Source: a bacterium
GTDB taxonomy: Bacteria; Vulcanimicrobiota; Xenobia; Xenobiales; JADMJV01
DNA: 64,000 nt
NCBI GenBank assembly: GCA_018266105.1
Contig: JAFEBA010000042.1
Location: forward strand, 22,216-86,215
Reading direction: 5' to 3'
Below, piece after piece: positions 3,558-53,450 of the stretch. The notes under the pieces were generated by a model that saw nothing but the letters and a program-made list of their open reading frames with translations, searched no databases and was not told where the DNA came from. The position numbers were made by a program, and so were the translations under genes. Each line of letters opens with the position of its first letter. The first letter of the stretch is position 1.

Positions 3558-4031
3558 ATGATCGCCAGCTTCACATCCTTCCACCACTCCAGTATCACCC
3601 AGCCCTATGAGCAGGCTAGCGCTGGAATTCGCACCCTCAAACAGATCGACGGCACCCCTGGCGACCGCAATCCGGCACCCAACGCCATTTCCATGTCAAC
3701 CTCCCAAGGTCAACTTGACGCAGTCATTCTAACCAACCCCGATCAATCGAATACCGTGGTTCAGAGACTCAGCAAAAAGTCGGGAGAGGTCGTCACATCC
3801 TGGCTGGAAGTTCCACAAAAATCCGACTGGGTTCCCAACATGAGCGGATTTGAAGTCAGCCAGAGTCTGATCGGTCTGCATGGCCTGGCTCTCGGAGTAC
3901 GGGAAGGCTGGACCCCCGGCGGGTTGGGCATTCCCAATCGCAGCTACGAAAACCAGATTATGTCCTCGGCCGAGGCCCAAAACGCCCTGATGCGCGCCGA
4001 GTCGGTGCTGGCCGCCTACCCGATCCTCTAA
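3558..4031 (+). CDS. hypothetical protein (157 aa), no signal peptide, Ser/Thr/Gln-rich N-terminus
   Basis: First ATG of ORF 3297..4031 lying downstream of the preceding gene's stop (3475). No recognisable domain. Confidence 0.5.
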   Translation: MIASFTSFHHSSITQPYEQASAGIRTLKQIDGTPGDRNPAPNAISMSTSQGQLDAVILTNPDQSNTVVQRLSKKSGEVVTSWLEVPQKSDWVPNMSGFEVSQSLIGLHGLALGVREGWTPGGLGIPNRSYENQIMSSAEAQNALMRAESVLAAYPIL

Positions 4032-5149
4032 TACTTCTTCATGCTCGGGTCGACTCGATCGGCCCAGGCCAGAATACCGCCGCGCAGGTTGACCACGCGC
4101 CGGAATCCTGCAGCTTGCATCTCCGCCTGAGCTTTGGCACTGCGCCCGCCCGACTTGCAGTGCACCACAATCTCGGCTTCTGGGTCCAGCTCTCGCCAAT
4201 CCCCGAGCCGCGCCCCAAAGGCAGACAGGTTCACCAGCTCCCATTCCTGCGGGGAGCGCACGTCCAGCAGCAAAGGCCGCCAACCCTCGGCCCAACGTCG
4301 GGCAAAATCTTCTGGCTCAATCTCCTCCCCTAGCCCACAAAATTGCCGATAATCCACCAGTTCGCGTATACTGGCCTGCGGCCCACACAATCGGCAGTCC
4401 GGGGAGCGACCAATCTTCAACTGGTTGAAGCTCATGGCCAGAGCATCAAACAACAGCAAACGTCCCAGCAAAGGCTCTCCAACGCCAAGGATCAGCTTCA
4501 GGGTCTCGGTGGCCTGGAGAGTTCCAATCACCCCGGGCAGGACTCCCAGCACCCCGCCTTCAGCGCAGGAGGGCACCATCCCGGGAGGAGGCGGCTCGGG
4601 ATACAGGCAGCGATAACACGGTGCCCCACGCGCGGGGTCAAAGACCGAAACCTGGCCCTCGAAGCGAAAAATGGAACCATAGACATTGGGCTTGCCCAGC
4701 AGGACACAAGCGTCGTTGACCAGATAGCGAGTGGGAAAATTGTCCGTCCCATCCACAACCACGTCATAGCGGCTCACGATTTCCATGGCGTTGGCCGCCA
4801 CCAAAGCCGTCTCATACGGTTCAACCTGAACAAACGGATTGATATCGTGCAGACGCTCCAGCGCTGAATCGATCTTGGAGCGACCCACGTCCTTGGTCCC
4901 GTGCAGAATCTGACGCTGCAAATTGCTGGCGTCCACCCGATCGAAATCCACAATCCCCAGCCGGCCCAGGCCGGCTGCGGCCAGATAGAGCCCGAGCGGA
5001 GAACCGAGTCCGCCCGTGCCAATCATCAACACCGAGGACTGCTTGAGCCGCTCCTGACCCTGCCGACCCACTTCCGGCAAATTCAAATGGCGGGCGTAGC
5101 GCGCCAATTCTTCAGAGGTCAAGCTGTCGTTCTTCCTTGATCTGGTCAT
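4028..5149 (-). CDS. moeZ: MoeZ/MoeB-type adenylyltransferase/sulfurtransferase (ThiF/E1-like domain plus C-terminal rhodanese)
   Basis: Motifs: RYARHLNLPEVG, GTGGLGSP nucleotide loop, CYRC...SCAEGG and CRLC zinc cysteines, C-terminal rhodanese active-site loop HCKSGGRS. Start set at the internal ATG (MTRSRKND) to limit overlap with the upstream GNAT gene. Confidence 0.85.
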   Translation of the reverse strand: MTRSRKNDSLTSEELARYARHLNLPEVGRQGQERLKQSSVLMIGTGGLGSPLGLYLAAAGLGRLGIVDFDRVDASNLQRQILHGTKDVGRSKIDSALERLHDINPFVQVEPYETALVAANAMEIVSRYDVVVDGTDNFPTRYLVNDACVLLGKPNVYGSIFRFEGQVSVFDPARGAPCYRCLYPEPPPPGMVPSCAEGGVLGVLPGVIGTLQATETLKLILGVGEPLLGRLLLFDALAMSFNQLKIGRSPDCRLCGPQASIRELVDYRQFCGLGEEIEPEDFARRWAEGWRPLLLDVRSPQEWELVNLSAFGARLGDWRELDPEAEIVVHCKSGGRSAKAQAEMQAAGFRRVVNLRGGILAWADRVDPSMKKY

Positions 5150-5612
5150 AGGGCTGCAGACCCAGCTTTTGGTAGAGCGGCAAGGCCGCCGGATGGTCCA
5201 AATCGCAGGTATGCAACCAGACCCTTTTGGGGTCATCGCGCCAGGCCTGATGCAAGGTCCAGCCCAACCACAGGCGGCCCAGCCCCTTGCCCAAAAACTC
5301 CGGCATCAAGCCGAAATACCCCACATTGACTTCACCCGGACTATGGATCAACTCGCAATATCCGGCCGGCGTACCGGCGTGGTAAAGCACCCACAGTTCT
5401 AATTCAGGGCGGCGCAATTCCCGCAGCAGCTGCTGGTCAGGCCAACGGGTTCGATCCAGCCACTTCCAGCTGGCGCCAACCGCTCCATAGAGGTATCGAT
5501 AGAACGAAACGCTCGGCTCCATGCTCTGCAGCACCTGAAGCGGCGAAGGCAAGGGCAAGTTGGGTTGAGTGGGAGGCTTGAACATCTGCAAATAGGTAAT
5601 GGTGACTTCCAT
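5112..5612 (-). CDS. GNAT family N-acetyltransferase
   Basis: 166 aa with an acetyl-CoA binding-type segment FGLMPEFLGKGLGRLWL (Q/RxxGxG/A-like) and the C-terminal PALPLYQKLGL motif typical of GNATs. Confidence 0.8.
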   Translation of the reverse strand: MEVTITYLQMFKPPTQPNLPLPSPLQVLQSMEPSVSFYRYLYGAVGASWKWLDRTRWPDQQLLRELRRPELELWVLYHAGTPAGYCELIHSPGEVNVGYFGLMPEFLGKGLGRLWLGWTLHQAWRDDPKRVWLHTCDLDHPAALPLYQKLGLQPYDQIKEERQLDL

Positions 5613-5665
5613 TCCCAGCGTTTCTTTGCACCAGGGAATTCAGCCTCTTCCAGGAAGCCGGCCGC

Positions 5666-7234
5666 ATGAATATCAAAAGCGCACTTCTCGCCAGTTCTCT
5701 TCTACTGGTCGGTTGCAGTCACAAACCTACCCTGCAGGGAGTCGACGGTATGGCCTCCCAGGTTCCAGCCACTGCCCTGTTTTTCGTTGGAGCTGACGCT
5801 CGCGACAAGATGCCCAAAGATTTTGTCAGCAAGATTGATGACGCCAAGCAACATCCGGAACTGGCCCCCGCAATGGCCAATCTCAAGAGTCAGCTGGGTG
5901 GTATCGACCCGGTCAAAATTGTCAAGGGTTTCGAACCGGCCGGCTGGGCCATACTGCTCGATCCTGGCGGCAAGAAGAATCCAAAGGAGCTGGCGGTGGT
6001 GGGTGCGCTTTGGGTGCGCGATCGCAAAGAAGCCGAAGCCACTCTGGCCGAACTGTCCCACAATGAAGCACCGCAGAAATCCGATCTCCAGGGCAAGAGT
6101 CTGGAAACCTACAAAGCCGGCTTTTCCACCTGCTTTGCCGAGCCTTTCTTGATCGTCTCCAATAGCCCTGAAGGCATCAAAGCCGTCTTGCAACGGTCGG
6201 GCCCCAGCCTGGCCGAAGACGCCAGCTACAAGGCCGCCCACAGCCAGATGTTCCAAAGCCAGTCGATGGTCTTTTGTTATTCGCCCATCAGCAGCGGGCT
6301 TGCGCTGGCTTCGCCCGACGCTCCCAAAAAGGCCGAAGGTGTCAAATATCTGGCAGGCGGCGTGGGCAAAGAAGCTCCCTACCGCCCCCAGGCTTTGCTT
6401 TCTCTGGACCCGGCCGCCGGCAGCGCGCTGGTCAAAAGTCTTCTGAATCCTCCCGCCAGTTCCAATGCGCTGGCGGCGAACATTCCGTCCAGTTGGAATT
6501 TCTATATGATGCTGCAAATGCGCTACCCGCTGCAGGCCATCAGCGGCGTTTCGCCTCAATTTCAGTCTGAGTCGGATAAAGGTCTCAAGCGCGCTGGCAC
6601 CAGTACGGCTCAGATTGACAAGGCATTTGAAGGCGATTTGGCACTGGCTTTTGATCTGGACCAGTATTTCGCCCAAATGCCCGACGGCGTCCCCAATGGT
6701 ATGTTGACCTGGGGCGTGCGCGATGCAGCCGCCTTTGAAGGCTTATGGAAACTTTTCTGCAGCCTCAACCGCGTGCGCAGCACGACCACCAAATACGGCG
6801 ACTACCAGGTCGAACACTTCCCCCAGCTGCCATTCCTGGTGCTGGCCCACCAGAGGAAGGCCAATAGTGCCGCCCTGCTGGTCCTGGGTAAGAACCCGGA
6901 CGAATTGCTGCACACAGTGACCTCTCTCAAGCTTGGCCAGTCCATGAAAGAGAGCCCGGCCCTCAAGAGCGCCAGCAGTGGAGCTCTGATGGCGGTACAG
7001 TATGATTTACGTAACACCACTCAGCAACTCAAAAAGCTCGGCCTGCTGGGAATGAGCCCGGAACTGGCGCCGATTAAGACCGCCATTGACAACTGGTCGC
7101 CGGAAATGTGGCAGGGAGACCTGACCGTCAAAGTGGAGAAAGACGGCATCAAGGCGGAAGGCAACCCGGTCACCATGTTCATTGCAGCAGCATTCCAGGG
7201 TGGCTTCTGGTATGGCTTCTTCGGGGGTCAGTAG
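5666..7234 (+). CDS. lipoprotein of unknown function (DUF3352-like size and architecture)
   Basis: Lipobox in MNIKSALLASSLLLVG|CSH. 522-aa soluble domain with no catalytic motifs. Confidence 0.7.
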   Translation: MNIKSALLASSLLLVGCSHKPTLQGVDGMASQVPATALFFVGADARDKMPKDFVSKIDDAKQHPELAPAMANLKSQLGGIDPVKIVKGFEPAGWAILLDPGGKKNPKELAVVGALWVRDRKEAEATLAELSHNEAPQKSDLQGKSLETYKAGFSTCFAEPFLIVSNSPEGIKAVLQRSGPSLAEDASYKAAHSQMFQSQSMVFCYSPISSGLALASPDAPKKAEGVKYLAGGVGKEAPYRPQALLSLDPAAGSALVKSLLNPPASSNALAANIPSSWNFYMMLQMRYPLQAISGVSPQFQSESDKGLKRAGTSTAQIDKAFEGDLALAFDLDQYFAQMPDGVPNGMLTWGVRDAAAFEGLWKLFCSLNRVRSTTTKYGDYQVEHFPQLPFLVLAHQRKANSAALLVLGKNPDELLHTVTSLKLGQSMKESPALKSASSGALMAVQYDLRNTTQQLKKLGLLGMSPELAPIKTAIDNWSPEMWQGDLTVKVEKDGIKAEGNPVTMFIAAAFQGGFWYGFFGGQ

Positions 7235-7243
7235 GGGCTCACT

Positions 7244-7909
7244 GTGCACGAAGCCTGGCTTGCCACCCTGAATCATTCCGAATGGGCCGAACAACTGCGC
7301 GTGCGATTGCGTGTGGGCCGGACCGATCTGGATGACCTGATCGCCCAGGGCCCGCCTGTGGCGGCATGGCAGCAATGGTTATCCTCGCGTTGCCCGGATC
7401 AAGCCCGGCAAATGCTCACACATGATCACGAACTGCACTGCCAGTGGCAAAACCAACACGCTGCGCGGGGTAACGTTCTCGTGCCTCTGACCCGAATTGA
7501 CGATTACCTTTGGCGTGGCCCTCAACCAGACGAGAGCATCCAGGAAAAGATCCCTGACCTGAAAGCCCTGATCAACCTTCGTCCCGAGGATCGGCGCAGC
7601 CAGGAACTATCGAAACAACTCGGACTGGACTACCTTCACGTTCCAGTTCAGGACATGTCCGTACCCAGCCCCGCCCAGGTTCAGGACTATCTGGCCTACT
7701 GTGCCAGCCTCACCGGTCCGGCCCTGGTCCACTGCTTTGCGGGCCAGGGGCGCACCGGGTTGTTCGTGGCCGCTTACCGCATCTTCCGAGGCCACGACCC
7801 TGAAAGCGCCATCCTCCTGACCAACCAGGAGACCGGGCTCAAGGGGATGCGGCCCTGTCAGGCCCAATGGATCAGAGAGAACGGCCACCTGTGCATCCCT
7901 TCGAAGTAA
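7244..7909 (+). CDS. protein-tyrosine / dual-specificity phosphatase-like protein (CX5R)
   Basis: GTG start. P-loop VHCFAGQGRTGLF (HCxxGxxRT). Upstream DDYLWRGPQP...LINLRPE resembles Siw14/Oca-type tyrosine phosphatase family members. Confidence 0.75.
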   Translation: MHEAWLATLNHSEWAEQLRVRLRVGRTDLDDLIAQGPPVAAWQQWLSSRCPDQARQMLTHDHELHCQWQNQHAARGNVLVPLTRIDDYLWRGPQPDESIQEKIPDLKALINLRPEDRRSQELSKQLGLDYLHVPVQDMSVPSPAQVQDYLAYCASLTGPALVHCFAGQGRTGLFVAAYRIFRGHDPESAILLTNQETGLKGMRPCQAQWIRENGHLCIPSK

Positions 7910-8691
7910 CCTTCGATGGGTTGACGCTGCGTGGCTGGCGTCGCCCCGGCCAGGGTCCTCGCTGCCTGGCGGTGCACGGCTGGCTGGACAACGCCAACAC
8001 CTTTCTGCCTCTGACCGAGTACCTGACCGACTGGGAGATCATCTCGGTCGATCTACCCGGCCACGGCCGTTCGGACCATCTACCCCATCCGGGCTGGTAT
8101 CACTTTATCGATACTGTCCATTGGGTGGTGCGCCTGATTCAGCACTGGCAGCCCGAATGGTTACTGGGCCACTCCCTGGGCGGAGGCCTGATCAGCATGG
8201 CCGCCGCCGTCCAGCCCGTTCAGGGCGCCATCCTCTTGGACGCGCTCGGACCCATCACTTCGCCCGCGGAGGAAGCGCCCCAGATTTTCAGGCGATCGCT
8301 CCAGGCTCAGGAAAAGCCTTTTCGTCGACGCTACTATGCCAGCTATCAGGAAGCACTGGCCCGACTCAGTCATCCACAACTGGCCGAACGGAGTCTGCAA
8401 AACGACGCCAATGGCTACTTTTTTGCCTATGATCCAAGGGTCAAGTACGTATCCCGGTTGAGGATGACCGAAGCTCAAATCCAGGCTTATCTGCGTGAGG
8501 TAAAAAGCCCGGTTCAGGTGCAGAGTTACAGTCGCGGCATATTGCCCCCCTTCGGCCCCCTGCAAGAACGCCTGGCATGCCTGGCGAAGGTTCAACTGGT
8601 GGAGATCGAAGGCGGCCATCATCATCATCTGGATGACCCGGCCCAGGTAGCCGAACATATCCTCGCCTTCCAAAAGGAGAACCATGGATAA
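7867..8691 (+). CDS. alpha/beta hydrolase
   Basis: HGWLDNANTF oxyanion region, GHSLGGG nucleophile elbow, C-terminal EGGHHHHLD His region. Overlaps the phosphatase gene by 43 nt, so the start is uncertain. Confidence 0.8.
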   Translation: MDQRERPPVHPFEVTFDGLTLRGWRRPGQGPRCLAVHGWLDNANTFLPLTEYLTDWEIISVDLPGHGRSDHLPHPGWYHFIDTVHWVVRLIQHWQPEWLLGHSLGGGLISMAAAVQPVQGAILLDALGPITSPAEEAPQIFRRSLQAQEKPFRRRYYASYQEALARLSHPQLAERSLQNDANGYFFAYDPRVKYVSRLRMTEAQIQAYLREVKSPVQVQSYSRGILPPFGPLQERLACLAKVQLVEIEGGHHHHLDDPAQVAEHILAFQKENHG

Positions 8692-9091
8692 CGACCTGCA
8701 GGCCATCCACCAACTCGTACGCCAGCTCTATCTGGCCATCAGTTTCAACAGCCAGTCCGGTCCGGATTGGGAAGTCCTGCGTGGCCACTTTTGGGAACGA
8801 GGCCAGCTCGTTCGTTCAGGCCTGGCCGGGATCGAATACTACAGCGTCGAACAGTTTACAGAATGGGTGGACCAGGCACGCGCCAACGGTCTGACTTCCT
8901 TTCAAGAAGAAGAAACGGACGCCAGCACTCATCTCATGGGCAACCTCGCCCATCGCGCCAGCCACTACCGGGCCACCCTGGATGAAGGTCGCGGGGGCAC
9001 CGTGGAAGGCATCAATTCGATGCAGATTCTGAAATCAAACGGGCAATGGAAAGTGGTTTCCCTGCTTTGGGACGTTCCCGCTCCGACCTGA
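8684..9091 (+). CDS. NTF2-like (SnoaL/DUF4440-like) small protein
   Basis: 135 aa. N-terminal helix IHQLVRQLYLAIS and C-terminal NGQWKVVSLLWD are typical of the NTF2-like fold. Overlaps the upstream gene by 8 nt. Confidence 0.55.
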   Translation: MDNDLQAIHQLVRQLYLAISFNSQSGPDWEVLRGHFWERGQLVRSGLAGIEYYSVEQFTEWVDQARANGLTSFQEEETDASTHLMGNLAHRASHYRATLDEGRGGTVEGINSMQILKSNGQWKVVSLLWDVPAPT

Positions 9092-9103
9092 AGTCGCGGG
9101 CCC

Positions 9104-18033: not shown

Positions 18034-19812
18034 ATGAATTTGAAAGTCACCCCAGCCAAAGCAGTTTGGTTTGCCGTCCGGTTGACCGCAGTCATTGTCG
18101 CCAGCTTTCTGCTCAGCAGCAAAATCGCTCCGCTATGGAACCACTGGGTCGGAATCAGTGGCCGGGCAGCTGGTCTGGGGAGCGGCCTTGTGCTGATCAT
18201 GGTGGTGGTACTGGCGATCCCGGCATGGCTGGCCGGTTTCCTGCGGCGGCGCCTAACAAAGCTCTCCAGCCTCACCTGGATTGCCGTCTGGAATCTGGCC
18301 CTCAGCATCCTCCTGCTTCGAACTGGAAGCAACTTGCACAGCCACGGGAGCTGGCTGCTAGGCCAGACGCTGGGAACTGGACATCCGTTGGTGCTCGCCT
18401 TTCAGAATTGGCTGGGCTGGGGCGCTGGCGAATCCGAGCCCGGCCCGATTCCCCTGGCTGCTCCTTCAACCCCAACGCCATCGCACACCCCAGTCTGGAG
18501 AGAAACTCCCCAACCCAAGCCATCCCCCGCTCCCGACAGCCAACCGCCCCTTCGTCCGGCCGGCCCTCTGGAGCTGAAGGGTGGTCTGGTGCTGGTACCT
18601 GCCGAAACCACATCCACGCCGACCCCTGAACCTGCAGGGAAATCAGCCAACCACGCCTGGCGACTGGGAATCGTTACATCCTCAGAGTCTTCCCTTCGCA
18701 ATGGTTTCCCAGCCTCGACGGAGGAGGTCGAATTGATCTGTAACTTGGATGGATTCGCCGAACCGGATTCGGCCCGCCTGGAAGTGACCTGGTCCAACCA
18801 GCAAGGATTCAACCACCGAGAGCAGGTCGTGGCCTCCAGGACCAGAGTGGAACTGAAGCTACGGCGTCCAGACGGAGGCTGGGTCAGCGACATTCCCTAC
18901 GGCGTGGAAGTCAAAGTGGACGGTCGTCATGCTGCAAGCTACCGTTTTAGCTTCCCCTCTCAAGAGCGAGACCAGGTCGTCTTTTCCTTCTTCGCCGCCA
19001 TCCGCCGCGGAGACCGTTCTGCAGTCAGGCTCAGTCTGAAGCGGGACCCGAGCCTGGCAAACGCTGTGGGTCCGAACAATGTCGGCGCGACCGAACTGTC
19101 GGAATGCCAGGCCCGGGGAGACTACGTCAGCCCGCTCAACCTGGCCATTTCGAATGGTCAGGGCGAAATCGCTCGTATTCTCATCTCGGCCGGGGCCGAC
19201 GTGAATCAGCCTGCCGGGATCCACGCCATGACTCCACTCCTGGAGGCCGCTTCCAAGTCCGACTCGGAACTGCTGGGAGCCCTGCTGGAGGCCGGTGCAT
19301 CCCCCCAAGCGCAAGAAGCTCTGCAGTTGAGAAGCGCTTTGGACTATGCCGCCGAGAGCGGGCAGGTTGAGAACGTTCGCAAACTGCTGAAAGCGGGGGC
19401 GGACCCAAACTGGTTCATGATCCCGAGCAAAGACCGGCTCAATCCAGCCCGGGTCGCCGCGCTCGTCAAGAACCGTGAAATGGCGGAGTCCAAACATCTG
19501 GAATGTCTCAAACTACTGCTAGATGCCGGATCGGAGCCTCCACCCCTGGCCCCCTATTGCGAGGAGTGGGGGTCCAGCAAGATATTGAAGGAACTGCTCG
19601 CGCGAGGAGCCGACCTGGAAGCGGGCAAAACCGATGGCGACAAGGCCCTTTGGAGGGCAGTCTACCTGGGGCGGGCCGATCAGGTGGAATTGCTGTTGGC
19701 AGCGGGGGCAAAAACCTCCCTCGTCGTGGATGGCAAGCCTCTGCAGGAATGGGCACGCCAATCCAAGATCGATTCCCAGAAGAAGCTGGCCTTATTGGAG
19801 CAAAAAGGATAG
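18034..19812 (+). CDS. membrane-anchored ankyrin-repeat protein
   Basis: ATG preceded by GGGAG. About 4 N-terminal TM helices, a Pro-rich linker, and C-terminal ANK repeats (SPLNLAISNGQGEIARILISAGADVN; TPLLEAASKSDSELLGALLEAGASP; ALDYAAESGQVENVRKLLKAGADPN). Confidence 0.8.
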   Translation: MNLKVTPAKAVWFAVRLTAVIVASFLLSSKIAPLWNHWVGISGRAAGLGSGLVLIMVVVLAIPAWLAGFLRRRLTKLSSLTWIAVWNLALSILLLRTGSNLHSHGSWLLGQTLGTGHPLVLAFQNWLGWGAGESEPGPIPLAAPSTPTPSHTPVWRETPQPKPSPAPDSQPPLRPAGPLELKGGLVLVPAETTSTPTPEPAGKSANHAWRLGIVTSSESSLRNGFPASTEEVELICNLDGFAEPDSARLEVTWSNQQGFNHREQVVASRTRVELKLRRPDGGWVSDIPYGVEVKVDGRHAASYRFSFPSQERDQVVFSFFAAIRRGDRSAVRLSLKRDPSLANAVGPNNVGATELSECQARGDYVSPLNLAISNGQGEIARILISAGADVNQPAGIHAMTPLLEAASKSDSELLGALLEAGASPQAQEALQLRSALDYAAESGQVENVRKLLKAGADPNWFMIPSKDRLNPARVAALVKNREMAESKHLECLKLLLDAGSEPPPLAPYCEEWGSSKILKELLARGADLEAGKTDGDKALWRAVYLGRADQVELLLAAGAKTSLVVDGKPLQEWARQSKIDSQKKLALLEQKG

Positions 19813-19835
19813 CCGCTGGGAAGGGGTGCATTTAT

Positions 19836-21368
19836 TTGGATCTATTCGTAGCAATAGAAAGCAACAATGTTTCGGAAGTGGATCGTCTACTCCAGGCCGG
19901 CCTTGACGCGAACACACGCAGGGGTCAGATGACTGCGCTCATGCAAGCTGCCTCTCAGGGGCGAATGGAAATCCTAGAAACTCTGCTGCGCTGCGGAGCT
20001 GATCCACAAGCAACCGACTCGGACGTCGCGCGCGTTGGCCTCAAACGAATGGCCCAATTTGGTGGCAAAGATTGCCTCAGAGACGAGGCCCTCGGGCATT
20101 GCGCTCTGTTTGTTGCCGCCCGCCACGGTCAGGCCGCGGTGATTTCCCGCTTAATTCAGGCGGGGGCCGACCCGAATCGACGAGACTTCTTGGACGAAAC
20201 CCCGTTGATCTGGGCCGCCGAGGGGGGTCATCAAGAGGCTATCGCCGCGTTGCTGCTGGGCGGCGCCCGGCCCGATTCCAGAACTTTGATGGCTGCACTG
20301 GAAAAAAAACATCCAGAGTGTGCACTCGATTTGCTTCAGGCCGGAGTCTCACCCGATCAGAAGGCCCTGGTCCAGGCTGCCGATCTGGCCGATGCCCGCC
20401 TGCTGGAGAAGATGCTTGCACTCCAGCCCAAGCTGAAGACAGGCAAAGCCCTGGCACCGATCGCCTACGCTACTCGCACGGTCCCAGCGGCGGAGGCCCC
20501 ACCTGGCCGCTGGCCGACGCTATTGAATCAGAGCGGCTGGTTTAAACGAGTGCCGGAGCCCGAAGAGAAAATTCTTGAGGCTGTGGAAGTGCTTCTGAGG
20601 GCGGGCGCTCCCGTGAATGAAATCAGCTCAGTCGGTCCGGCCCTGTACGTCGCCGCTCAACAGGGCCTGACTTGCCTGGTGCGGCGGCTGCTCGAGGCCG
20701 GAGCCGACCCGCGTCTGGCCTACCGAGATCGTACCCCGCTCGAGGTCGCTCGGCTTCTAGGTCACGAGGAGATCGCGCGGCTATTAGGCGACGACGCTGC
20801 AGTTCCACCGCAGCCAGCCCTCCCGACCGCCCGCACACCGGGGACTGGCAAAGAACTGCAGCAGCCTTGCTTCCCAGAGTTCCCCGAAATTCCGGAACTC
20901 GAGGCGATCTGTGGCTCGCTCAGCTCCCAGCCGGACTACCTGAGGGGAGGGCGCGAAATCCGTTTGTCCAGGCCGGTTGACCTGCTGGCTCTACAACGCC
21001 ATTGGCGAACACAGGGCATCTACCTTTTCCACCCGGGCGACGAGACTTTACTGGCAGCCATCCCCGCTGACCATTGGCGAGTGGCCGTTGCCCTGATGCA
21101 GACCAACGGCGCGAACTGGGACCTGAACCCGAGCGACGTGGTGAGCTGGCTCGAGAAGCTTGAGAAAAAGCAGCCGTTCGAATTGTCAAACATCACTCGC
21201 GACCGGCTTGAAGGCGCCTTCCAGACACCCATCGCCGAACCCGAACGTCTGGCTCAAAGCATGTATCAATTTTGTCCCGACATCGTAGACCAGGGATGCG
21301 GCTCCCTGGAAGTGCTGGTTCAGGAGCTGAAAAAGGCTCCTGCAACTCTTTTCCTCTGGTGGGACTGA
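19836..21368 (+). CDS. ankyrin-repeat protein with DUF4253-like C-terminal domain
   Basis: Probable TTG start after the upstream stop; the ORF is open from 19503. ANK repeats (TALMQAASQGRMEILETLLRCGADP; ALFVAARHGQAAVISRLIQAGADPN; TPLIWAAEGGHQEAIAALLLGGARP). The C-terminus ends ...CPDIVDQGCGSLEVLVQELKK..TLFLWWD, which I recall as typical of DUF4253. Confidence 0.7.
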   Translation: MDLFVAIESNNVSEVDRLLQAGLDANTRRGQMTALMQAASQGRMEILETLLRCGADPQATDSDVARVGLKRMAQFGGKDCLRDEALGHCALFVAARHGQAAVISRLIQAGADPNRRDFLDETPLIWAAEGGHQEAIAALLLGGARPDSRTLMAALEKKHPECALDLLQAGVSPDQKALVQAADLADARLLEKMLALQPKLKTGKALAPIAYATRTVPAAEAPPGRWPTLLNQSGWFKRVPEPEEKILEAVEVLLRAGAPVNEISSVGPALYVAAQQGLTCLVRRLLEAGADPRLAYRDRTPLEVARLLGHEEIARLLGDDAAVPPQPALPTARTPGTGKELQQPCFPEFPEIPELEAICGSLSSQPDYLRGGREIRLSRPVDLLALQRHWRTQGIYLFHPGDETLLAAIPADHWRVAVALMQTNGANWDLNPSDVVSWLEKLEKKQPFELSNITRDRLEGAFQTPIAEPERLAQSMYQFCPDIVDQGCGSLEVLVQELKKAPATLFLWWD

Positions 21369-29222: not shown

Positions 29223-30011
29223 TCAGTTCTGCAATTCCGGCGGGCGGGCCCCGCAAATAAATGCATTCCAGTCAATGGGTTCAACCTTGGCGCGTTCCTT
29301 GGGACTGTCGGTCCCCATGGTCTTACCGTTACCCAGGTAGATCTCCACGTGACTGGCCTGTCCACGAGGAATTCCACGATTGTTGGGGTACCATAAGAAA
29401 ACCAGGTCACCAGGACGTAACTCGTTTCTGGAAATCTTGTGGCCAGCATAATGAGCCTGCAGACCTCGGGCGGTGGTTCGCCCGACCTTGGAACCTGCCT
29501 GACGTAAAGCCCAAGAAACCAGACCGGAGCAGTCGAACTGGTTTGGTCCTGAGGCGCCGAAAACGTACGGAGTTCCCTGCTTGGAAAGAGCCGCATCGAT
29601 CAGCTTTTGGACCTTGGGACTGGAGACCTTGGGGCCATTGGTAACACTGGCCTGACTCCCCACTGAACCGGCCGAACTGCCTGAACCGCCAGACGCCCCT
29701 GACCCGCCCTTGTGGTGGGTTCCTCTGCTCACATGGCCCAAATCCTGGCTCACGGGTGGCCCCTGAAAACCACCAAACCCAGTGTTTTCCATAAGTTGCA
29801 TCAACATGCCCATCATATTCAAAAGCAACTGATTGGTTTGCAGGCTGAGAGCCAACATCTGTACCTGAGCATCACAGGCCGGGGCTGTCAAGGTTGCGCC
29901 AGGCAGACGCCCCAGACTGACACCGGCGAGATCGGGGAGGAGCGGGGCGGTGGGACTGGCCAGGCCAGCTAAAGCACTAGATGCATTGAGGGGTTGTTGA
30001 ATAGCGAACAT
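29223..30011 (-). CDS. NlpC/P60 (C40) cysteine peptidase without signal peptide
   Basis: GTPYVFGASGPNQFDCSGLVSWAL (catalytic Cys) and ASHVEIYLG (His). N-terminal Gln/Leu/Met-rich region and a Gly/Ser linker. Confidence 0.85.
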   Translation of the reverse strand: MFAIQQPLNASSALAGLASPTAPLLPDLAGVSLGRLPGATLTAPACDAQVQMLALSLQTNQLLLNMMGMLMQLMENTGFGGFQGPPVSQDLGHVSRGTHHKGGSGASGGSGSSAGSVGSQASVTNGPKVSSPKVQKLIDAALSKQGTPYVFGASGPNQFDCSGLVSWALRQAGSKVGRTTARGLQAHYAGHKISRNELRPGDLVFLWYPNNRGIPRGQASHVEIYLGNGKTMGTDSPKERAKVEPIDWNAFICGARPPELQN

Positions 30012-41880: not shown

Positions 41881-41892
41881 TGTTTCCTGCGG

Positions 41893-42195: not shown

Positions 42196-42349
42196 CGAGC
42201 CAGTGCTCCTTCGTACAAAATGACCCTTGAAGCTTATCTCGCCAGGCCTCGCCAGTGTGCCCCGCAATGTCCTTGACCGGCGGGATCTGCATACCTCGGG
42301 ATCGGGGTCACTTGGGATAAAGGCTGGCGCACTTTAGTCTGAGAACAGG

Positions 42350-43531: not shown

Positions 43532-43583
43532 AACAAAATCCTTAGTGAGGAATCATCTCTTATCCAGGTTGTCCGACCCGCCC

Positions 43584-44800: not shown

Positions 44801-44868
44801 ATTCTCCTCTGCGTGTACCTTCCAGGCTCAAATCGACCCTGGTCGTGTTTAGAACAACTTGAACATAG

Positions 44869-44896
44869 AGCGGGAGGCGTTGTCCGGCCTCCCGCT
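44869..44896 (-). terminator. hairpin downstream of the MASE1/CHASE kinase gene
   Basis: AGCGGGAGGC-(8 nt)-GCCTCCCGCT, about 55 nt after the stop at 44951. Confidence 0.55.
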
Positions 44897-44950
44897 GGCG
44901 TCATCAGGTTTTAGGACTCCAGTCCTGAACGCGACGGAGGCCTGTGTGGC

Positions 44951-47719: not shown

Positions 47720-47894
47720 CTCTCCCTGGTACTATCGTCTGATCAATCCCCAAGTTAAGTGTCTGCACCAAGCGGGTCGGGCAGCCAGGCCACCTCGAAC
47801 CAGGCGGTAAGCTGGACTTCCCTGAATACAAGCAAACATCGCGGTTTGGAGGTGATTTCAGAGTCTGTTCAGCCACTGAACCTAATCTCAGATC

Positions 47895-48548
47895 ATGAAC
47901 TTCGGCACCATCAACATCTCAGGCGGCGTTTTCAATGGGAACGGCGCCTTCGGCGGCAACCAGGTTCGCGGCAGCGGCAAAGTCGTCGAGGAGCAGCGTG
48001 AAATCGCCGAGCACTTCGACCAGGTAGCCCTGAATGGCTCGGTGGATGTGGAAGTGGTGGCCGGAAAGTCGACCACCGGGGTCAAGGTCCAGGCGGATGA
48101 CAACATTCTGGCACTGGTCAAAACCCGGGTCGAAGATGGTGTTCTCCACGTTAATACAGAAGGGTCCTACAGCACCCAGAACGGACCCAAAGTCCTGGTC
48201 GAGCTCGATCACTCTCTGGTTGGGGCCGCCCTGAACGGCTCGGGTGACCTTAAAATCAGCGGGCAGATTGGCGATCGCTTCGCCGCCAGCCTGATGGGCT
48301 CAGGCGATCTGAGCATGAGTGGCCATGTGGCCAGCCTGGAACTCAGTTCCATGGGTTCAGGAGACTTCAACGGCCGCGGCCTGGTGGCCGATCAGGCCAG
48401 CTTACGCTGCATGGGTAGCGGCGATGCAACCGTTCACGCCGATCGCAGCCTCAATGTCCAGCTGATGGGCTCGGGCGACTGCTATTACTCGGGCAGCCCC
48501 CGAGTGACCAAGTCCATTCTGGGCAGCGGCGAACTCGAGCAGCTCTAG
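47895..48548 (+). CDS. DUF2807 / head GIN domain-like beta-helical protein
   Basis: Five GSGD repeats (GSGDLKISG, GSGDLSMSG, GSGDFNGRG, GSGDATVHA, GSGDCYYSG). No signal peptide. Confidence 0.7.
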   Translation: MNFGTINISGGVFNGNGAFGGNQVRGSGKVVEEQREIAEHFDQVALNGSVDVEVVAGKSTTGVKVQADDNILALVKTRVEDGVLHVNTEGSYSTQNGPKVLVELDHSLVGAALNGSGDLKISGQIGDRFAASLMGSGDLSMSGHVASLELSSMGSGDFNGRGLVADQASLRCMGSGDATVHADRSLNVQLMGSGDCYYSGSPRVTKSILGSGELEQL

Positions 48549-48782
48549 TTCGGCCGCCTTTAGCGCGGATACAGCCGCAGCGACCCGCCTGGAAAAACAC
48601 GATCACTCTTCCCTTTCCGTCAGGAACCGCGTAATCCGAGAAGACCTCGCCAGCCTGAGCATTCCTCCCCTCCCTTTTGACGCAGCTTTGACGCTAAATG
48701 AGCGTGACCATGCTAATTTCAGAATTCGTTCAGGCCCGTCGAATAAATCTCGGCACACACATACAGACAAAGAGGGAAGATC

Positions 48783-49829
48783 GTGAACATCCAATCCACA
48801 CAAAACCGCTTTCAGCCCCCAGCTCCAAAACCGGCGACTCCCGAGCCGGACAAAATACCACCTCTGGACGTGGTCGCTATCGGCGCTCTGGACACCGGAA
48901 CGGGATGGACCGGAATCAATAAGCCCATCCGCGTGACCGACCCCAAGGATCCGAACTCGGCTTACGTAGCCAAGAATAATACCGACGGTGCATTCATCAG
49001 CCTTCATCCCCACCACGATACACGCAAAGACAATATCACCGAAATTGTGATGTCGCACATCGTGGCTGACGAATTTAAAATGCCCTCGCTCACCTTTCGT
49101 GAAGGCAACCTGGTCACACCCGATGGACGCAAATCGCAGGTCGTGCTCAGCCCCTTGCGCACCGACTTCAAAACCCTCGAGCACGTGGCCGTGGAAGAGA
49201 TCAAGGACGGCGACCAGGCCGTGGCCTTAACCGTGCTTCAAGGGGGCCTGCTGGGCGACTGGGACTCCACCTTTAACGACAGCAACCTTTGGGTTCGCAA
49301 CGACGGGGTCGCAATGGGGGCCGATTATGGCTACGCCGGCAAACCGGGCATCAGCTGCCTGGGCGTGCCTTTCGCCAACATCAAAATTATGAAGGCTTTT
49401 GCCAATCGCGAAAACGTCACCAGCATCAGCGACCGCATCAAGAATCTCAGCGATGAAGAGATTCAGGCTATGGTGGAACGCCAGGGCAGCAAGTGGATTC
49501 GGGACTGGAATCCTCAGATCTCCAAAGAACTTTCCGATAACCTCATTTCCAATCGCAACCGGATGCGCCAGCACAACCCGTTTCTAAAATACGTAGAGGG
49601 CTTCCATCCGGGCCTCAAAGGTCCACTGCTGCATTCCAAATATCCAGCTTTCTTCTGGAAATGCAGCCAGGCTGAGGCGCCGCCCTTGAACCGACCGGAC
49701 CAATGGCTGGACGTACTGATTGCCGTGAGCAAATACAAAAAATCCGAGACCATGGCGAAATTCTTCACCTACATGCGGTCCCAGGTGCAGTCGCCTGAAG
49801 AGAAGGCGGCTGAGGCCAAAAAGGGTTAA
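48783..49829 (+). CDS. atypical protein-kinase-fold protein (hypothetical)
   Basis: GTG start 6-7 nt after AGAGGGA. Candidate kinase landmarks in the right order: AYVAKNN (beta3 Lys), EIVMSHIV (alphaC Glu), LLGDWDSTFNDSNLWV (D-x-D...N catalytic loop), GADYGYAG (DFG-like). Confidence 0.6.
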   Translation: MNIQSTQNRFQPPAPKPATPEPDKIPPLDVVAIGALDTGTGWTGINKPIRVTDPKDPNSAYVAKNNTDGAFISLHPHHDTRKDNITEIVMSHIVADEFKMPSLTFREGNLVTPDGRKSQVVLSPLRTDFKTLEHVAVEEIKDGDQAVALTVLQGGLLGDWDSTFNDSNLWVRNDGVAMGADYGYAGKPGISCLGVPFANIKIMKAFANRENVTSISDRIKNLSDEEIQAMVERQGSKWIRDWNPQISKELSDNLISNRNRMRQHNPFLKYVEGFHPGLKGPLLHSKYPAFFWKCSQAEAPPLNRPDQWLDVLIAVSKYKKSETMAKFFTYMRSQVQSPEEKAAEAKKG

Positions 49830-52123
49830 TGCAAATGCACATCACGCGCCTGACCAACCCCAGCCTGCCTCTCCGACGACTGCCCGCGCCCGCTCCCGGG
49901 TCGACCGACAAGGTCGAGCTGGGTGGAAGAACGACTCCCCTCGAACTGATCAAGGCACAGATCCCCTGCCCCAGACAGGATCCCAAAGATCCTCGCTTTG
50001 GCCTGGCCTGCTCAGCTTTCCTTCGCCCCGATCCCTTCTTTAGCGAGACCACCCGGTTGGTGGTGCACGCCGGGCGAACCGGCAACAACCCCAATGGGGT
50101 GATCGAGCTGCCGACTAGCAAACTGAACATGATTGCCACCGATCAGCTTCTCAGCCGAAAGGACCAGGTGCTGCTTGGTTTCGGCAGTCCGCGAGTGAGC
50201 CTGCTCATTCCCGGCCAGAATGGCTACCAGCGTCTCCAATCGTCACCGTTCTTTAGCAAGAAGTCACGTATCATTTCGGGCGAGACCATTCAGTCCGGGG
50301 TCTTCATCCGACCCCGCAACCTGCCAGCCGAGGCATTGCAGGCCTTGACCAAAGCCATGAACGAGCAGGTCGGCCAACGCAGCATCAGCTCGGCCAGGGC
50401 CAATGCCGAAGTGCTCAGCCAGGCGGGGTTCACCTCAGGTGGACGCAAGCTGAGCGGAAAGCTGCTGCCCTTTCGGCTCTTTCGCCAGATCGCGCAAAAG
50501 GGGCTCGAATTTCAGGGCCGGCCGGTTGCCTTCGACATCATCAGCACCAATAATAAAAGCCTGGACGACCACTTCCGCAAGGTCATCGGTCAGGAGCTGC
50601 ATAGTCCCTTTGACCCAAAGGTGGATCCGGAGGTCCCGGCTCCCAACGCGACCAACGCCTACCCAGATCCCTGTCAGCCTTCCGACCCTAACGCCCCTCA
50701 GGTGCGCATCCGCAATTCTCGGCCGGGCCTGGTTGGCAGTAGCCTGCGCTCGCTGCTGGGTGCCCACATCCTGTGGGAAGCTTTGCCCGACCCTAAGCTG
50801 GCTGACATCAACCAGTTTCTTCCTCAAGTGCTCAAGGACAAATTCCACGACGACAAGCCCCTGACGCGCGGAGAGAAGATCAAGTCCATCATCTTCAAAC
50901 CGGCGGTGGTCAGCTTCTTGCGCAAAAACATGGCCAAAGCCTTTGATGATGGGGGTCAGTTCGCCCCCAGACAGCTTGCCTCGATGCTTCGGGTTGCCGG
51001 TGAGGGTGAAGAGGTCCAGGCCGATTCCAAGGGGCGCATCAAATACAACCTGGTGATCTGCGGAGATCAGTCTCCGCGGGGAACGCACATCACCATCGCT
51101 CGCCTGAACGTCAAAAACAACGACTCGAAGGCCGATGATGTGCTCTCCAAACATGTACTGCTGGCCGGCTATGATCCGGATGTTCGCTTTGCCGGCGAAT
51201 GCTGGGCCGAACGCTACTCTCAATCTGACGGCAGCCAGGCCGTGCGCATCCACGTCAACAACAACTCGGGAACCTACCGTCCCAATGGACAGCAGGCGCA
51301 GGCCGCTGGCGAATTTCTGCGCAAGGCTCTACCGGGAGTGGAGATCGTGGTTCATGAGACCACCCCTCCCCCACCCACCGGCAAGCCCGATTACCTGCGC
51401 ACCTATGCGGTCTCGCCAGACCAGGCCACCGCCTTGCGAGGTCTGGCCGGCCAGAAGGTGACGCTCAACGGCGAGGAATACAAAATCCATCAGTTCAAGA
51501 CGGTCGAGTTCGATACCGAATTCTATGACACAGGCGACCGCAAATTGCTTAACGGTGGCGGAATGCTTCGCTCCCGCACCCGCTATAAGCCAGGCACCGA
51601 CCAGGTCAAAACCATCGACATCGAATCCAAACTGCCGCCGGCTCAGCCAGGTCCTTTTCAAGACCGGGCCAAGGGGTTTAGCTTTGACTCCATGGAGGAG
51701 TGGAAGGCCCACCAAACCTGGGTTCTCAGTCCGGAAAGCACGGACGAAGCCGTGGGCTTCGCTCGAACCATGGCGGGTGATGGTCGGCTGGAGGCGGTGG
51801 CTTGCAAGCACTCCATGCGGGAACTGTTCCTGTTAACTCCCAGTCAGCGCTGGTTCGGCTTTTTCAAGCCCCAGTTCATCCTCAGTCTGGACACCAACAG
51901 CATGCGCGCCCCGGGCCTGCCACGCCCTCAGCAGCCGGGAGCGGACACCTACCAAGTGCTCACCCCCCAGGCATTCACAAAACTGCCCTGGACCAAAAAG
52001 GTCGAACCAGAGCGAATCGATCAGCTCAATGACCTGTGTCGGCAGCTCTCACAAAAATTCCAACTCCAGGAGGTGGGCATGTCCCCTTACGCTGAGGGCA
52101 TGGCTCACTGGAAGAAAGGCTAA
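49829..52123 (+). CDS. large hypothetical protein (764 aa) with CYTH-like C-terminal region
   Basis: The ATG overlaps the upstream stop (TAATG). The C-terminal ~230 aa contain VEFDTEFYDTGDRKLLNGGGMLRSRTRYK, resembling the CYTH beta-strand pattern (D.Y.DT....L...g..LR.R). The N-terminal and central regions are unassigned. Confidence 0.65.
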   Translation: MQMHITRLTNPSLPLRRLPAPAPGSTDKVELGGRTTPLELIKAQIPCPRQDPKDPRFGLACSAFLRPDPFFSETTRLVVHAGRTGNNPNGVIELPTSKLNMIATDQLLSRKDQVLLGFGSPRVSLLIPGQNGYQRLQSSPFFSKKSRIISGETIQSGVFIRPRNLPAEALQALTKAMNEQVGQRSISSARANAEVLSQAGFTSGGRKLSGKLLPFRLFRQIAQKGLEFQGRPVAFDIISTNNKSLDDHFRKVIGQELHSPFDPKVDPEVPAPNATNAYPDPCQPSDPNAPQVRIRNSRPGLVGSSLRSLLGAHILWEALPDPKLADINQFLPQVLKDKFHDDKPLTRGEKIKSIIFKPAVVSFLRKNMAKAFDDGGQFAPRQLASMLRVAGEGEEVQADSKGRIKYNLVICGDQSPRGTHITIARLNVKNNDSKADDVLSKHVLLAGYDPDVRFAGECWAERYSQSDGSQAVRIHVNNNSGTYRPNGQQAQAAGEFLRKALPGVEIVVHETTPPPPTGKPDYLRTYAVSPDQATALRGLAGQKVTLNGEEYKIHQFKTVEFDTEFYDTGDRKLLNGGGMLRSRTRYKPGTDQVKTIDIESKLPPAQPGPFQDRAKGFSFDSMEEWKAHQTWVLSPESTDEAVGFARTMAGDGRLEAVACKHSMRELFLLTPSQRWFGFFKPQFILSLDTNSMRAPGLPRPQQPGADTYQVLTPQAFTKLPWTKKVEPERIDQLNDLCRQLSQKFQLQEVGMSPYAEGMAHWKKG

Positions 52124-52127
52124 GACC

Positions 52128-53450
52128 ATGAAGATTCAATCACTGCCGCCTGTCCGGCCACTGCCCCAAATCAGCATCCTGCATTCCCCCCAACCAGTGA
52201 GCTCGGACGAATATCAGCCCGGCCCCCGCGAACGCTGCAAAAGCGCCATTGGCAAACTGGGCGCCGGAATCGGTCTGACCGGGATCGGTGGCCTGGGCTA
52301 CGCAATGGGCGCGGCCATCGGGCACCCACTGGCCGGCAGCCTGGTGGGCGGAGCGCTGGGCACCGTCATCGGAACCCTGGTTGGCCACAAACTGGCCGAC
52401 AAACTGCATCCGGCAGGCAAGCAACCCCTGAAGTCCAGCCAATGGACCGACCCCACCCCGAGCACTTCGGAGAGCGTGGCCGCTATGAAAGCCGGCATCA
52501 GCGAGTTGCAAAATACCCTGCTGGCCTCGGGCCAGATATCCAAACTGGACCGGGGATTCCACCAGAAACAAAACTGGGGAGGCAAAGCCCACATCGAGTT
52601 TAATGCCGACCTGGCCCCTGAACTGCGCTCGGGCTTGCTGGCCAATCTGGCCGGCCAATCTGTGACCAGCGCCGTGCGCTTTTCGAACGGTCAGGGCTGC
52701 CCCTTTCACGACTCCAAGGCCGACGCTCGCGGTATGGCCGTGAAGATGAATGTCGACGGTCAGCAGGCCGATCTGCTGGCTACCGACCACATCACCTTTG
52801 CTCGCAACCCCGTGCAATTTATGAAGTTCGCCAAGGTGGCGGCCCTGATGCAGACCAAAGGGCCGCTGTCCGCTCTGGGTGCGGTCATCCGCAACACCGT
52901 GCACGGTGACTTTAAGGCAGCCGAGGCTCTGAGGATCATGGCGACCCTGATCCGCGACACCAGCGGCGGCATTGAGCATCCGGCCGCCAAGACCTACTGG
53001 ACTCAGGCCCTTCATGTGGGCGACCTGACCGGTCGCTTTGTGTTCAGCCCCGAAAGTGGGGCCAACACAAAGCCTCCCCGCTTCGGCAAAGACCCCAACT
53101 ACTTGCGCAAAAACATGGAGACGGATCTCTCACATGGACCGGTCTCGATGAAGATCGGGTTCGAAGCCTTCACCGAAGACAGTGCCTCCCGCGACGCTTC
53201 GCAGCACGGCCAACACATCACCCTGCCGGTCGGCCGGCTGGTCATCGAGCAGCGCCCGTCGCAAGGACGTGAGGCCGAGGAGCAACTGGTATCGAGGATG
53301 CAGTTCAACCCGGCCAACGGCTTTGATATGGCCGGGCCCTTGAACGAAAGCAACCGAGCTGAAATCTATCGACAGAGCGCGACCAATCGAGGCGCCCTGG
53401 ACTGGTCCGCCCCGGAAGTTCAACAATTTTTTGCAAAGAAGGCCCCATAA
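52128..53450 (+). CDS. catalase-related haemoprotein (mini-catalase) with N-terminal glycine-zipper segment
   Basis: ATG 8-9 nt after GAAAGG. Catalase landmarks in order: RGFHQKQ (distal His), AVRFSNGQG, DARGMAVKM, NRAEIYRQSATNRG (proximal Tyr). N-terminal GAGIGLTGIGGLGYAMGAAIGHPLAGSLVGGALGTVIGTLVG. Confidence 0.8.
   Translation: MKIQSLPPVRPLPQISILHSPQPVSSDEYQPGPRERCKSAIGKLGAGIGLTGIGGLGYAMGAAIGHPLAGSLVGGALGTVIGTLVGHKLADKLHPAGKQPLKSSQWTDPTPSTSESVAAMKAGISELQNTLLASGQISKLDRGFHQKQNWGGKAHIEFNADLAPELRSGLLANLAGQSVTSAVRFSNGQGCPFHDSKADARGMAVKMNVDGQQADLLATDHITFARNPVQFMKFAKVAALMQTKGPLSALGAVIRNTVHGDFKAAEALRIMATLIRDTSGGIEHPAAKTYWTQALHVGDLTGRFVFSPESGANTKPPRFGKDPNYLRKNMETDLSHGPVSMKIGFEAFTEDSASRDASQHGQHITLPVGRLVIEQRPSQGREAEEQLVSRMQFNPANGFDMAGPLNESNRAEIYRQSATNRGALDWSAPEVQQFFAKKAP

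Follow-up and report, generated by a model that had tools for sequence, protein, structure and literature searches.

Do unrelated proteins encoded in one stretch of bacterial DNA carry a common signal at their N-termini, and might this signal direct them out of the cytoplasm? The question is raised by a 64,000-nt window from a member of the Xenobiales (class Xenobia, Vulcanimicrobiota; contig JAFEBA010000042.1 of assembly GCA_018266105.1), which has a G+C content of 59% and contains about 60 genes; near-identical DNA is found in metagenomes from activated sludge, sludge, and biofilms, and in part from soil and moss. Homologues of two of the proteins discussed below bear the labels Candidatus Eremiobacterota, Candidatus Xenobia, or Vulcanimicrobiota, in keeping with an uncultured Eremiobacterota bacterium. 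A sequence-only reading of this window had singled out nine proteins that lack Sec or lipoprotein signals, mostly share early isoleucines and acid-free N-termini rich in serine, proline, and glutamine, and were proposed to follow one type III-like export route, linked to an orphan gene for a protein with an FlhA_C domain. We find that this first observation was real, yet too loosely defined and tied to the wrong gene.

A short N-terminal tag is present on proteins from unrelated families in several genomes, all without Sec-type signals. M-x-I-[Q/S/T/N] forms its core, and a Pro/Gln-rich spacer comes next; in a fuller definition, Met is followed by one to three residues, Ile (at times Val), and then Gln, Ser, Thr, or Asn. 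Downstream lies an acid-poor, disordered spacer of 20–200 residues rich in Pro, Gln, and Ser, and then a folded enzyme. The codons that encode the tag argue for selection at the protein level, and in the one reliable structural model, that of a 764-aa protein, the N-terminus is predicted to be disordered. We tentatively favour the view that the tag guides Sec-independent targeting or export as an N-terminal leader peculiar to this lineage, one whose form recalls type III signals.

The tag and the proteins that carry it

Judged by their sequences, unrelated signal-less proteins of the window share this N-terminal feature. Five of them (48783, 49829, 52128, 30011, and 53452; proteins are named here by start coordinate) are clear members, with the tight openings MNIQSTQNRFQPPAP (48783), MQMHITRLTNPSLP (49829), MKIQSLPPVRPLPQ (52128), MFAIQQPLNASS (30011), and MLITTSSPARLP (53452). 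The last of these, a peroxidase with the same N-terminal style, was absent from the original list of nine.

48783..49829, plus strand: 348-aa protein starting (GTG) with MNIQSTQNRFQPPAPKPATP, without a Pfam domain; first gene of a Xenobiales triad
49829..52123, plus strand: 764-aa (or 762-aa) protein starting with MQMHITRLTNPSLPLRRLPAPAP, with a disordered 46-aa N-terminus, unassigned N-terminal domains, and a C-terminal CYTH/triphosphate-tunnel fold
52128..53450, plus strand: 440-aa catalase-related haem protein starting with MKIQSLPPVRPLPQIS, at the same start as in the gene call
53452..55788, plus strand: 778-aa TPR and animal-haem-peroxidase protein starting (GTG) with MLITTSSPARLPRAQ (An_peroxidase, E 3e-116 in Pfam)
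29223..30011, minus strand: 262-aa NlpC/P60 (RipC-like) hydrolase starting with MFAIQQPLNASS, assigned by Pfam and NCBIfam

Four more proteins (11652, 47895, 15259, and 3558) are probably members of second rank, and one protein of the original list, a C11 protease, is excluded, with an Asp as its third residue and no Ile near the start.

47895..48548, plus strand: loose member, 217-aa DUF2807 (GIN-domain, adhesin-head-like) protein starting with MNFGTINISGGVFNG, without a signal peptide (Pfam E 8e-30)
10393..11652, minus strand: loose member, 419-aa J-domain protein starting with MSYISAGYNPILAAAGPS (DnaJ, E 1e-11)
13706..15259, minus strand: loose member, 517-aa hydrolase starting with MSNSISRLVSSGFNLV (Abhydrolase_6, E 3e-7, after a 230-aa uncharacterised N-terminal region)
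3558..4031, plus strand: loose member, 157-aa uncharacterised protein starting with MIASFTSFHHSSITQP, directly downstream of the FlhA_C-like gene
16062..17849, minus strand: non-member, Peptidase_C11 (clostripain-like; Pfam E 2e-11), with its start at ATG 17774 or GTG 17849

Start codons were checked against gene calls made independently on Logan contigs from this organism. All nine open reading frames (ORFs) originally listed are present, and seven of the nine start codons hold. Identical starts were called for 11652, 15259, 30011, 47895, 48783 (a GTG, not an ATG), and 52128, and most of these ORFs, those of 47895 and 48783 among them, offer no alternative start codon. For 3558, the gene caller preferred 3441; since its 87% identical, 157-aa orthologue in L088 (GCA_046327835.1), a Vulcanimicrobiota contig with conserved synteny, begins with MIASFTSFHH, we consider the start at 3558 correct. 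For 49829, the two proposed starts lie two codons apart (49829/49835): the gene call begins two codons further in, giving MHITRL, the orthologues begin with MQIQ or MMIQ, and no database record was identical to the 764-aa protein when begun at 49829. The remaining start, that of the C11 protease at 17774, is doubtful; the gene call begins at GTG 17849.

The absence of Sec and lipoprotein signals was borne out. As a plain hydropathy measure of a hydrophobic core we used the highest 12-residue Kyte-Doolittle mean near the N-terminus, with a threshold of 1.6. None of the nine proteins has an N-terminal core, and for eight of them the maximum is below 1.3; the value of 1.79 obtained for 48783 comes from residues of a folded domain well past the N-terminus. 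By comparison, a core (≥1.6) was found in 21 of the 51 other proteins of the window, several of which have textbook signal-peptidase or lipobox sites. A convincing membrane span was seen in none of the nine, barring a marginal one in 52128. The Met-rich helix of the NlpC/P60 protein and other segments were considered as signal anchors and rejected, as their hydrophobicity is too low and the helix is too polar for a span. The lack of a Sec signal peptide extends to all 51 inspected orthologues of the NlpC/P60 protein. A second NlpC/P60 gene (32241–32930) has a lipobox-like LAAC; read from the long ORF, its N-terminus resembles that of a lipoprotein (…LAAAPLALAACHSP), and the automatic call shortens the product to 113 aa (start 32589).

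Most domain labels given earlier to these proteins stood. Pfam supports the NlpC/P60, Peptidase_C11, alpha/beta hydrolase, and C-terminal DnaJ domains and confirms DUF2807 in 47895, while the LysM segment of 11652 is sub-threshold (E 0.013). This last protein is composed of a Pro-rich N-terminus, the LysM-like segment, Gly/Ala-rich hydrophobic stretches, and the C-terminal J domain. In 30011, a low-complexity region leads into a Met-rich helix and then a Gly/Ser linker, with the catalytic domain last. The very Met-rich helix (e.g., QMMNMFAMSMMAMMTQLMQML) is conserved in this NlpC/P60 family (29223–30011 and P0055–P0174), where it is placed between a Gly/Met/Pro/Gln-rich low-complexity region and the Gly/Ser linker. 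A FlgJ-type rod-cap function was considered for the family and rejected, since the Rod-binding domain (PF10135) gave no match in 37 members at E up to 1.

The 764-aa protein was modelled by AlphaFold2 with a predicted local distance difference test (pLDDT) score of 78.7 overall and below 30 for residues 1–46, and Foldseek matched it to CYTH/triphosphate-tunnel enzymes at E ~1e-6. The 440-aa protein 52128 is similar to MAP_2744c of Mycobacterium avium (PDB 3e4w, E 5e-5) and is encoded directly upstream of an animal-haem-peroxidase gene, which recalls the pairing of such a protein with a haem peroxidase or dioxygenase; unlike MAP_2744c, it is extended at the N-terminus by 130 aa that include the tag and a glycine-zipper-like hydrophobic segment (approximately residues 45–90, with a marginal hydrophobic segment at 68–86), and it is located in a Xenobiales-specific operon with two uncharacterised proteins. 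Fatty-acid hydroperoxide (oxylipin-type) chemistry is suggested for the haem pair of this operon. For 15259, the matches in PDB were weak and every one was to the hydrolase core, and PDB sequence searches with the 764-aa, 348-aa, and 157-aa proteins, as well as with a NolX-like protein from L088, yielded nothing useful. Neither the 348-aa nor the 157-aa protein has a match in Pfam or PDB; the single-sequence AlphaFold2 model of the former is unusable (pLDDT 35.6), and a kinase-like GDWD...N...DYG pattern in it was noticed by eye only. Many effector-like or eukaryote-like genes (7244–7909, 17980–21368, and 57952–59421) encode products without the tag, namely, a dual-specificity phosphatase, a pair of ankyrin-repeat proteins, of which the first has transmembrane (TM) segments at its N-terminus and the second is fused to DUF4253, and a Ser/Thr kinase.

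Recurrence of the tag among orthologues and in other genomes

The 764-aa protein has 20 full-length orthologues in Eremiobacterota/Xenobia. In their alignment (n = 20), the N-terminal 60–200 residues are hypervariable; the extreme N-termini recur, with openings M(x)IQ (MQIQ, MMIQ), MNPIQ/H, NPSIN, TPIN, and QIPINQ. The genes of the 348-, 764-, and 440-aa proteins form an operon conserved in two Xenobiales contigs, L082 and L083, with the peroxidase gene next in L082; the coordinates of this Xenobiales-specific operon are 48783–55788 in the window, 8964–16088 in L082, and 8916–13825 in L083. Its products start with MIINNKAIPSYP, MQIQSLNQPTGLP, MIIQSKPQLP, and MQIRSAQQS (the peroxidase) in L082 and with MKLSSIQPKPQPP, MMIQKFPNHSP, and MQISHNPQTP in L083. 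Considered by family, the 348-aa orthologues begin with MIINNKAIPSYPKP (L082) and MKLSSIQPKPQPP (L083), those of the 440-aa haem protein with MIIQSKPQLPVARQLP and MQISHNPQTPRIP, and those of the peroxidase with MQIRSAQQS in L082 and MQISSVPQQPTQ in L010. Outside Xenobiales, the neighbours of the peroxidase were not conserved among the 72 loci retrieved by a metagenome scan. More than 50 orthologues of the NlpC/P60 protein were found in Eremiobacterota/Vulcanimicrobiota, and the 51 inspected have N-termini such as MFAVQQPT, MFPIQQNP, MAINMNFNLGQ, MALNLNFNFGQ, and MAITSFQQLAPQN.

The codons of the Ile-Gln pair differ synonymously between genes (ATC/ATT, CAA/CAG), and there is no extended upstream DNA motif in common; hence, selection acts on the peptide. 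An origin of the similarity in a common 5' DNA cassette or in leaderless mRNA was rejected: the upstream regions have only Shine-Dalgarno-like purine runs in common, and three of the genes begin 0–4 bases past the preceding gene.

The tag is not confined to these families. Unrelated carriers in independently fetched loci include an ATLF/M90-like metalloprotease in L083 (18268, MRIQSQLKPQTP), a protein in L082 (6716, MIIQKLVRPNVP), an ATLF-like protein in L088 (MLNPLSRLTPLTPQ), and two proteins starting with MQIQSFRPQSP and MKIQTVRANL in L089 (Vulcanimicrobiota, GCA_019637395.1); L082, L083, and L089 had been fetched for other reasons.

To what extent is the tag enriched? A composite N-terminal criterion was satisfied by 16 of 107 called genes vs. 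0.8% of internal windows. Counted over ORFs, the proportion is 18.5% in the window and 16% in L082/L083, compared with 3.9% in Eremiobacterota housekeeping loci and 5.1% of 450 ORFs from other bacteria. The pattern ^M.IQ occurs at the start of 9/223 Eremiobacterota ORFs vs. 3/488 in controls (p = 0.002), and an early Ile combined with no Asp/Glu in the first 12 residues was found in 10 of 39 signal-less proteins, an unselected count, vs. approximately 2–4 expected (binomial p ~0.006 at a generous rate); these p-values are indicative only, since the criteria were fixed once the data had been inspected and orthologues cannot be counted as independent.

The individual features on which the sequence-only reading had relied discriminate less well. 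Ile at positions 2–6 is present in eight of the nine candidates and in 18 of the 51 other proteins, a comparison that is circular because the candidates were chosen on that feature. Similarly, the first 12 residues contain no Asp/Glu in 8/9 candidates vs. 6/30 other signal-less proteins, with the acid-free run alone being near chance. Eight signal-less proteins of the window combine an acid-free stretch over the first 12 residues with Pro or an aliphatic amino acid as residue 3 or 4, namely the listed 11652, 30011, 49829/49835, and 52128, the peroxidase 53452, and three unrelated proteins.

Carriers tend to be located in variable islets between conserved syntenic genes, a location typical of accessory effector or toxin genes. 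Genes flanking such islets are 70–90% identical between the window and the syntenic L088. The block 9104–11652, which includes the J-domain candidate, has no tblastn match in L088, where the flanking genes are adjacent, and the hydrolase 15259 and the C11 protease lack an L088 counterpart because the gene content of L088 differs beyond 13236. Relative to L088, the window contains two insertions, a ThiF/rhodanese gene at 4028–5122 and a four-gene block at 9104–11652, whose products are a secreted protein (173 aa), a zinc-ribbon protein (170 aa), an acidic protein (65 aa), and the J-domain candidate. Conversely, two additional genes stand at 1131–4020 of L088, where the corresponding flanking genes in this organism (L001, left of the window) are direct neighbours. 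The additional genes encode a NolX/HrpF-repeat protein (PF05819, E 2e-9), with Cys/His in its C-terminal part, and an anthrax-lethal-factor (ATLF)/M90-like metalloprotease; both N-termini are polar.

The FlhA_C-like protein and the search for machinery

The gene with which the export route had been associated encodes the following product.

1187..3475, plus strand: 762-aa membrane FlhA_C-like protein with TM segments, a C2H2 zinc-finger-like motif (residues 240–262), and an FlhA_C domain (residues 423–747)

Its orphan status was overturned by an exhaustive search, which revealed full-length relatives 35–47% identical in Vulcanimicrobiota/Eremiobacterota; the orphan appearance was a product of word-indexed (k-mer-limited) homology search. 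Nor does the gene provide the export link as originally stated, since the FHIPEP membrane (gate) domain is missing. The protein matches positions 322–654 only of the FHIPEP profile (E 3e-55), leaving the N-terminal polytopic domain (approximately 1–320) unmatched, and it has one clear TM segment at residues 98–116. With 188 bits it scores far under the cut-off of 772 for TIGR01398 (FlhA), and with 87 bits against hrcV. Thus, residues 423–747 resemble the cytoplasmic C-terminal (ring) domain of FlhA/SctV, which in type III systems docks chaperone-substrate complexes, but the gate domain is replaced by a few TM segments and the C2H2 zinc-finger-like motif, and there are no flhB/fliPQR genes nearby. 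The protein is outside the functional FlhA/SctV class, and its domain content indicates that it cannot be an export gate on its own.

The adjacent genes, encoding a hemerythrin-like protein and the 157-aa protein 3558, are kept in L088, and no flhB/fliPQR or sct operon stands alongside; a true flagellar operon, in L084, has flhB/fliPQR. The FlhA_C-like protein is 45% identical to its syntenic counterpart in L088 (10001–12286), whereas the neighbours are 70–90% identical; it is evolving much faster than the surrounding genes. Other non-canonical architectures with the FlhA_C domain (P0175–P0213) combine it with FliG_N and a C2H2 zinc finger, with TPR, UBA-like, and HEAT domains, or with CTP synthase, or contain two FlhA_C copies and HEAT. 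No description of FlhA_C in non-flagellar architectures was found in the literature searched. The zinc-finger motif, RRKIF(A/S)C(E/P)VCDEVFIDEE(G/S)LRRHE(P/L)TH at residues 228–262, is 77–79% identical to the N-terminus of a conserved 339–347-aa membrane protein of Vulcanimicrobiota (L002–L005) and looks like a shared C2H2-like module; a scan of a genome collection with the FlhA_C-like protein retrieved this 35-aa motif only, from metagenome-assembled genomes of Vulcanimicrobiota.

Type III genes were sought in the window and in approximately 150 kb of related loci (L001–L009, L082, L083, L085, L087–L089). The window yielded no secretion machinery of any type, and the only hints of secretion in the related loci were a YukD/FHA pair and pseudopilin and T2SS-F genes. 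The former, at 5–2205 of L089, consists of a YukD-like ubiquitin-fold gene (PF08817) followed by a gene for a 611-aa FHA-domain protein, 8–10 kb upstream of the FlhA_C-like gene, and hints faintly that a type VII-like system may have left a trace in this diderm phylum. A full-length FlhA match (P0004) belongs to a true flagellar operon, and was rejected because the contig has a G+C content of 73% and hence comes from another organism; none of the nearest canonical FlhA proteins is labelled Eremiobacterota. We found nothing in the literature on secretion systems or flagella in class Xenobia.

One could imagine an Eremiobacterota export or targeting pathway that reads the M-x-I-Q leader and uses the fast-evolving (FliG_N)-zinc-finger-FlhA_C family of membrane proteins as a substrate-docking platform, this family being descended from the flagellar type III sorting apparatus and separated from the canonical gate. 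We regard such an arrangement as very improbable.

What the tag may do

We infer from the sequences that the tag may be a sorting signal and that its carriers would be exported. In this case, the short lineage-specific tag at the very N-terminus would serve as the recognition leader of a Sec-independent route in Eremiobacterota, its unfolded N-terminus would be recognized first, as in type III-type export, and enzymes would leave the cytoplasm without a signal peptide, among them the NlpC/P60 hydrolase, the DUF2807 protein, and the ATLF-like metalloproteases found in relatives. Relatives of these carriers are normally extracytoplasmic.

In form, the tag is similar to type III signals (Hop, Yop, flagellar): it is located at the extreme N-terminus of unrelated enzymes, is disordered, lacks a hydrophobic core, contains few acids, and has an aliphatic residue at positions 3–5 followed by polar uncharged residues. 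The N-termini resemble those of Yersinia Yops, Pseudomonas syringae Hops, and the flagellar proteins FlgM, FlgL, FlgD, and flagellin; in the type III paradigm, the N-terminal signal is uncleaved. Unlike P. syringae signals, the tail is Pro/Gln-rich rather than Ser-rich, and unlike classical type III signals generally, the first 4–6 residues are more motif-like (M-x-I-Q). A second comparison is with the packaging leaders of extracellular contractile injection systems (eCIS; PVC/Afp type) and the trafficking domains of polymorphic toxins, where unrelated enzymatic cargo proteins have in common a disordered leader, some tens of residues long, at the N-terminus. As with such cargo, the carriers are unrelated enzymes encoded in variable islets; unlike in eCIS, no sheath, tube, baseplate, Rhs, VgrG, or PAAR genes were seen in the loci examined here, and to our knowledge an M-x-I-Q opening has not been reported for these leaders.

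Several observations weigh against an export leader. No FliPQR, FlhB, FliI/SctN, FliF/SctJ, or secretin was seen in the 64-kb window or the ~150 kb of related loci. Several carriers, namely, the J-domain protein, the CYTH-domain protein, and the haem enzymes, might function inside the cytoplasm or on the inner face of the membrane. An E. coli-type cytidine deaminase encoded just left of the window (L001, 6253–7167) starts with MQISTQLP, and a flavodoxin-like reductase satisfies the loose two-feature rule. Early Ile is general in the N-termini of the window (18/51, or 35%, vs. 18% expected by composition), and the first Asp/Glu falls at or after position 19 in 8–9 of 39 signal-less proteins vs. 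5.4 expected from an Asp+Glu content of 10.4%. The agreement with the P. syringae rules, which the sequence-only reading had invoked, largely failed: all three rules hold for only 2 of 38 signal-less proteins (11652 and 52128), because in most of them serine makes up less than the required 10% of the first 50 residues and the tails are Pro/Gln-rich. Finally, the tag was defined post hoc and partly from non-independent orthologues.

Some of these observations support the strongest alternative, namely, that the tag has no sorting role. The N-termini would then be ordinary disordered low-complexity tails, with the Met-x-Ile-polar opening set by early translation, Met retention, or protein stability; the proteins would stay cytoplasmic or membrane-bound, and the NlpC/P60 hydrolase would act on cytoplasmic substrates or be freed by lysis. 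The tagged cytidine deaminase, the flavodoxin-like reductase, and the possibly cytoplasmic J-domain, CYTH, and haem enzymes make this a serious rival, which also agrees with the general excess of Ile and with the lack of visible machinery. It is harder to reconcile with the rarity of the tag elsewhere (3.9 and 5.1% in the controls vs. 16–18% here), with its presence in unrelated families whose genes cluster in operons and variable islets, and with the retention of amino acids while codons change. The 51 RipC-like NlpC/P60 orthologues without a Sec signal are likewise hard to square with a peptidoglycan substrate if the tag sorts nothing. We consider this explanation possible, if somewhat doubtful.

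True type III substrates, with a flagellar system or injectisome encoded elsewhere and the FlhA_C-like protein part of or derived from the route, would account for the form of the N-terminus, for the greater similarity of the FlhA_C domain to flagellar FlhA than to hrcV, for FliG_N domains among its relatives, and for Ile-early N-termini on genes directly flanking the FlhA_C-like gene in three genomes. In L088, moreover, the NolX/HrpF-repeat protein is encoded beside the ATLF-like protease, at a site that is empty here. Flagellar genes have been reported in some Eremiobacterota (PMC4192840, PMC10284905), but the phylum's sole cultured representative lacks flagella (PMC9758169). The absence of all core type III components from the Eremiobacterota sequence examined, the lack of an export-gate membrane domain in the FlhA_C-like protein, the foreign origin of the flagellar operon reached through FlhA homology, and a serine content too low for the P. 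syringae rule combine to make this explanation unlikely. We know of no injectisome described for the phylum.

Selection by eye, with polar acid-poor N-termini picked from approximately 60 proteins and the loose members 15259, 47895, 11652, 3558, and 17774 alike by chance only, fits the near-chance acid-free runs, the use of the Ile criterion in choosing the set, the misfit of 17774, and the capture of clearly unrelated proteins by the two-feature rule, but is quite unlikely as the main explanation given that orthologues in four families keep the extreme N-terminus, that the tag recurs in a locus fetched for other purposes (L089), and that it is enriched over internal windows and control loci.

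Soils, sludge, and host-associated sites harbour Eremiobacterota (WPS-2) in abundance, and the cell biology of these bacteria is almost uncharted. If the tag is a true leader, shared by hydrolases, proteases, haem enzymes, and eukaryote-like proteins, it would define a non-classical secretome or targeted proteome of the phylum, would provide a simple sequence handle for the prediction of Eremiobacterota effectors, and would point to machinery undescribed in the phylum. If, on the other hand, it is a translational or stability feature, it would call for caution in applying type III signal rules to distant phyla. In either case, the occurrence of the FlhA cytoplasmic domain in many non-flagellar architectures bears on the evolutionary reuse of type III components.

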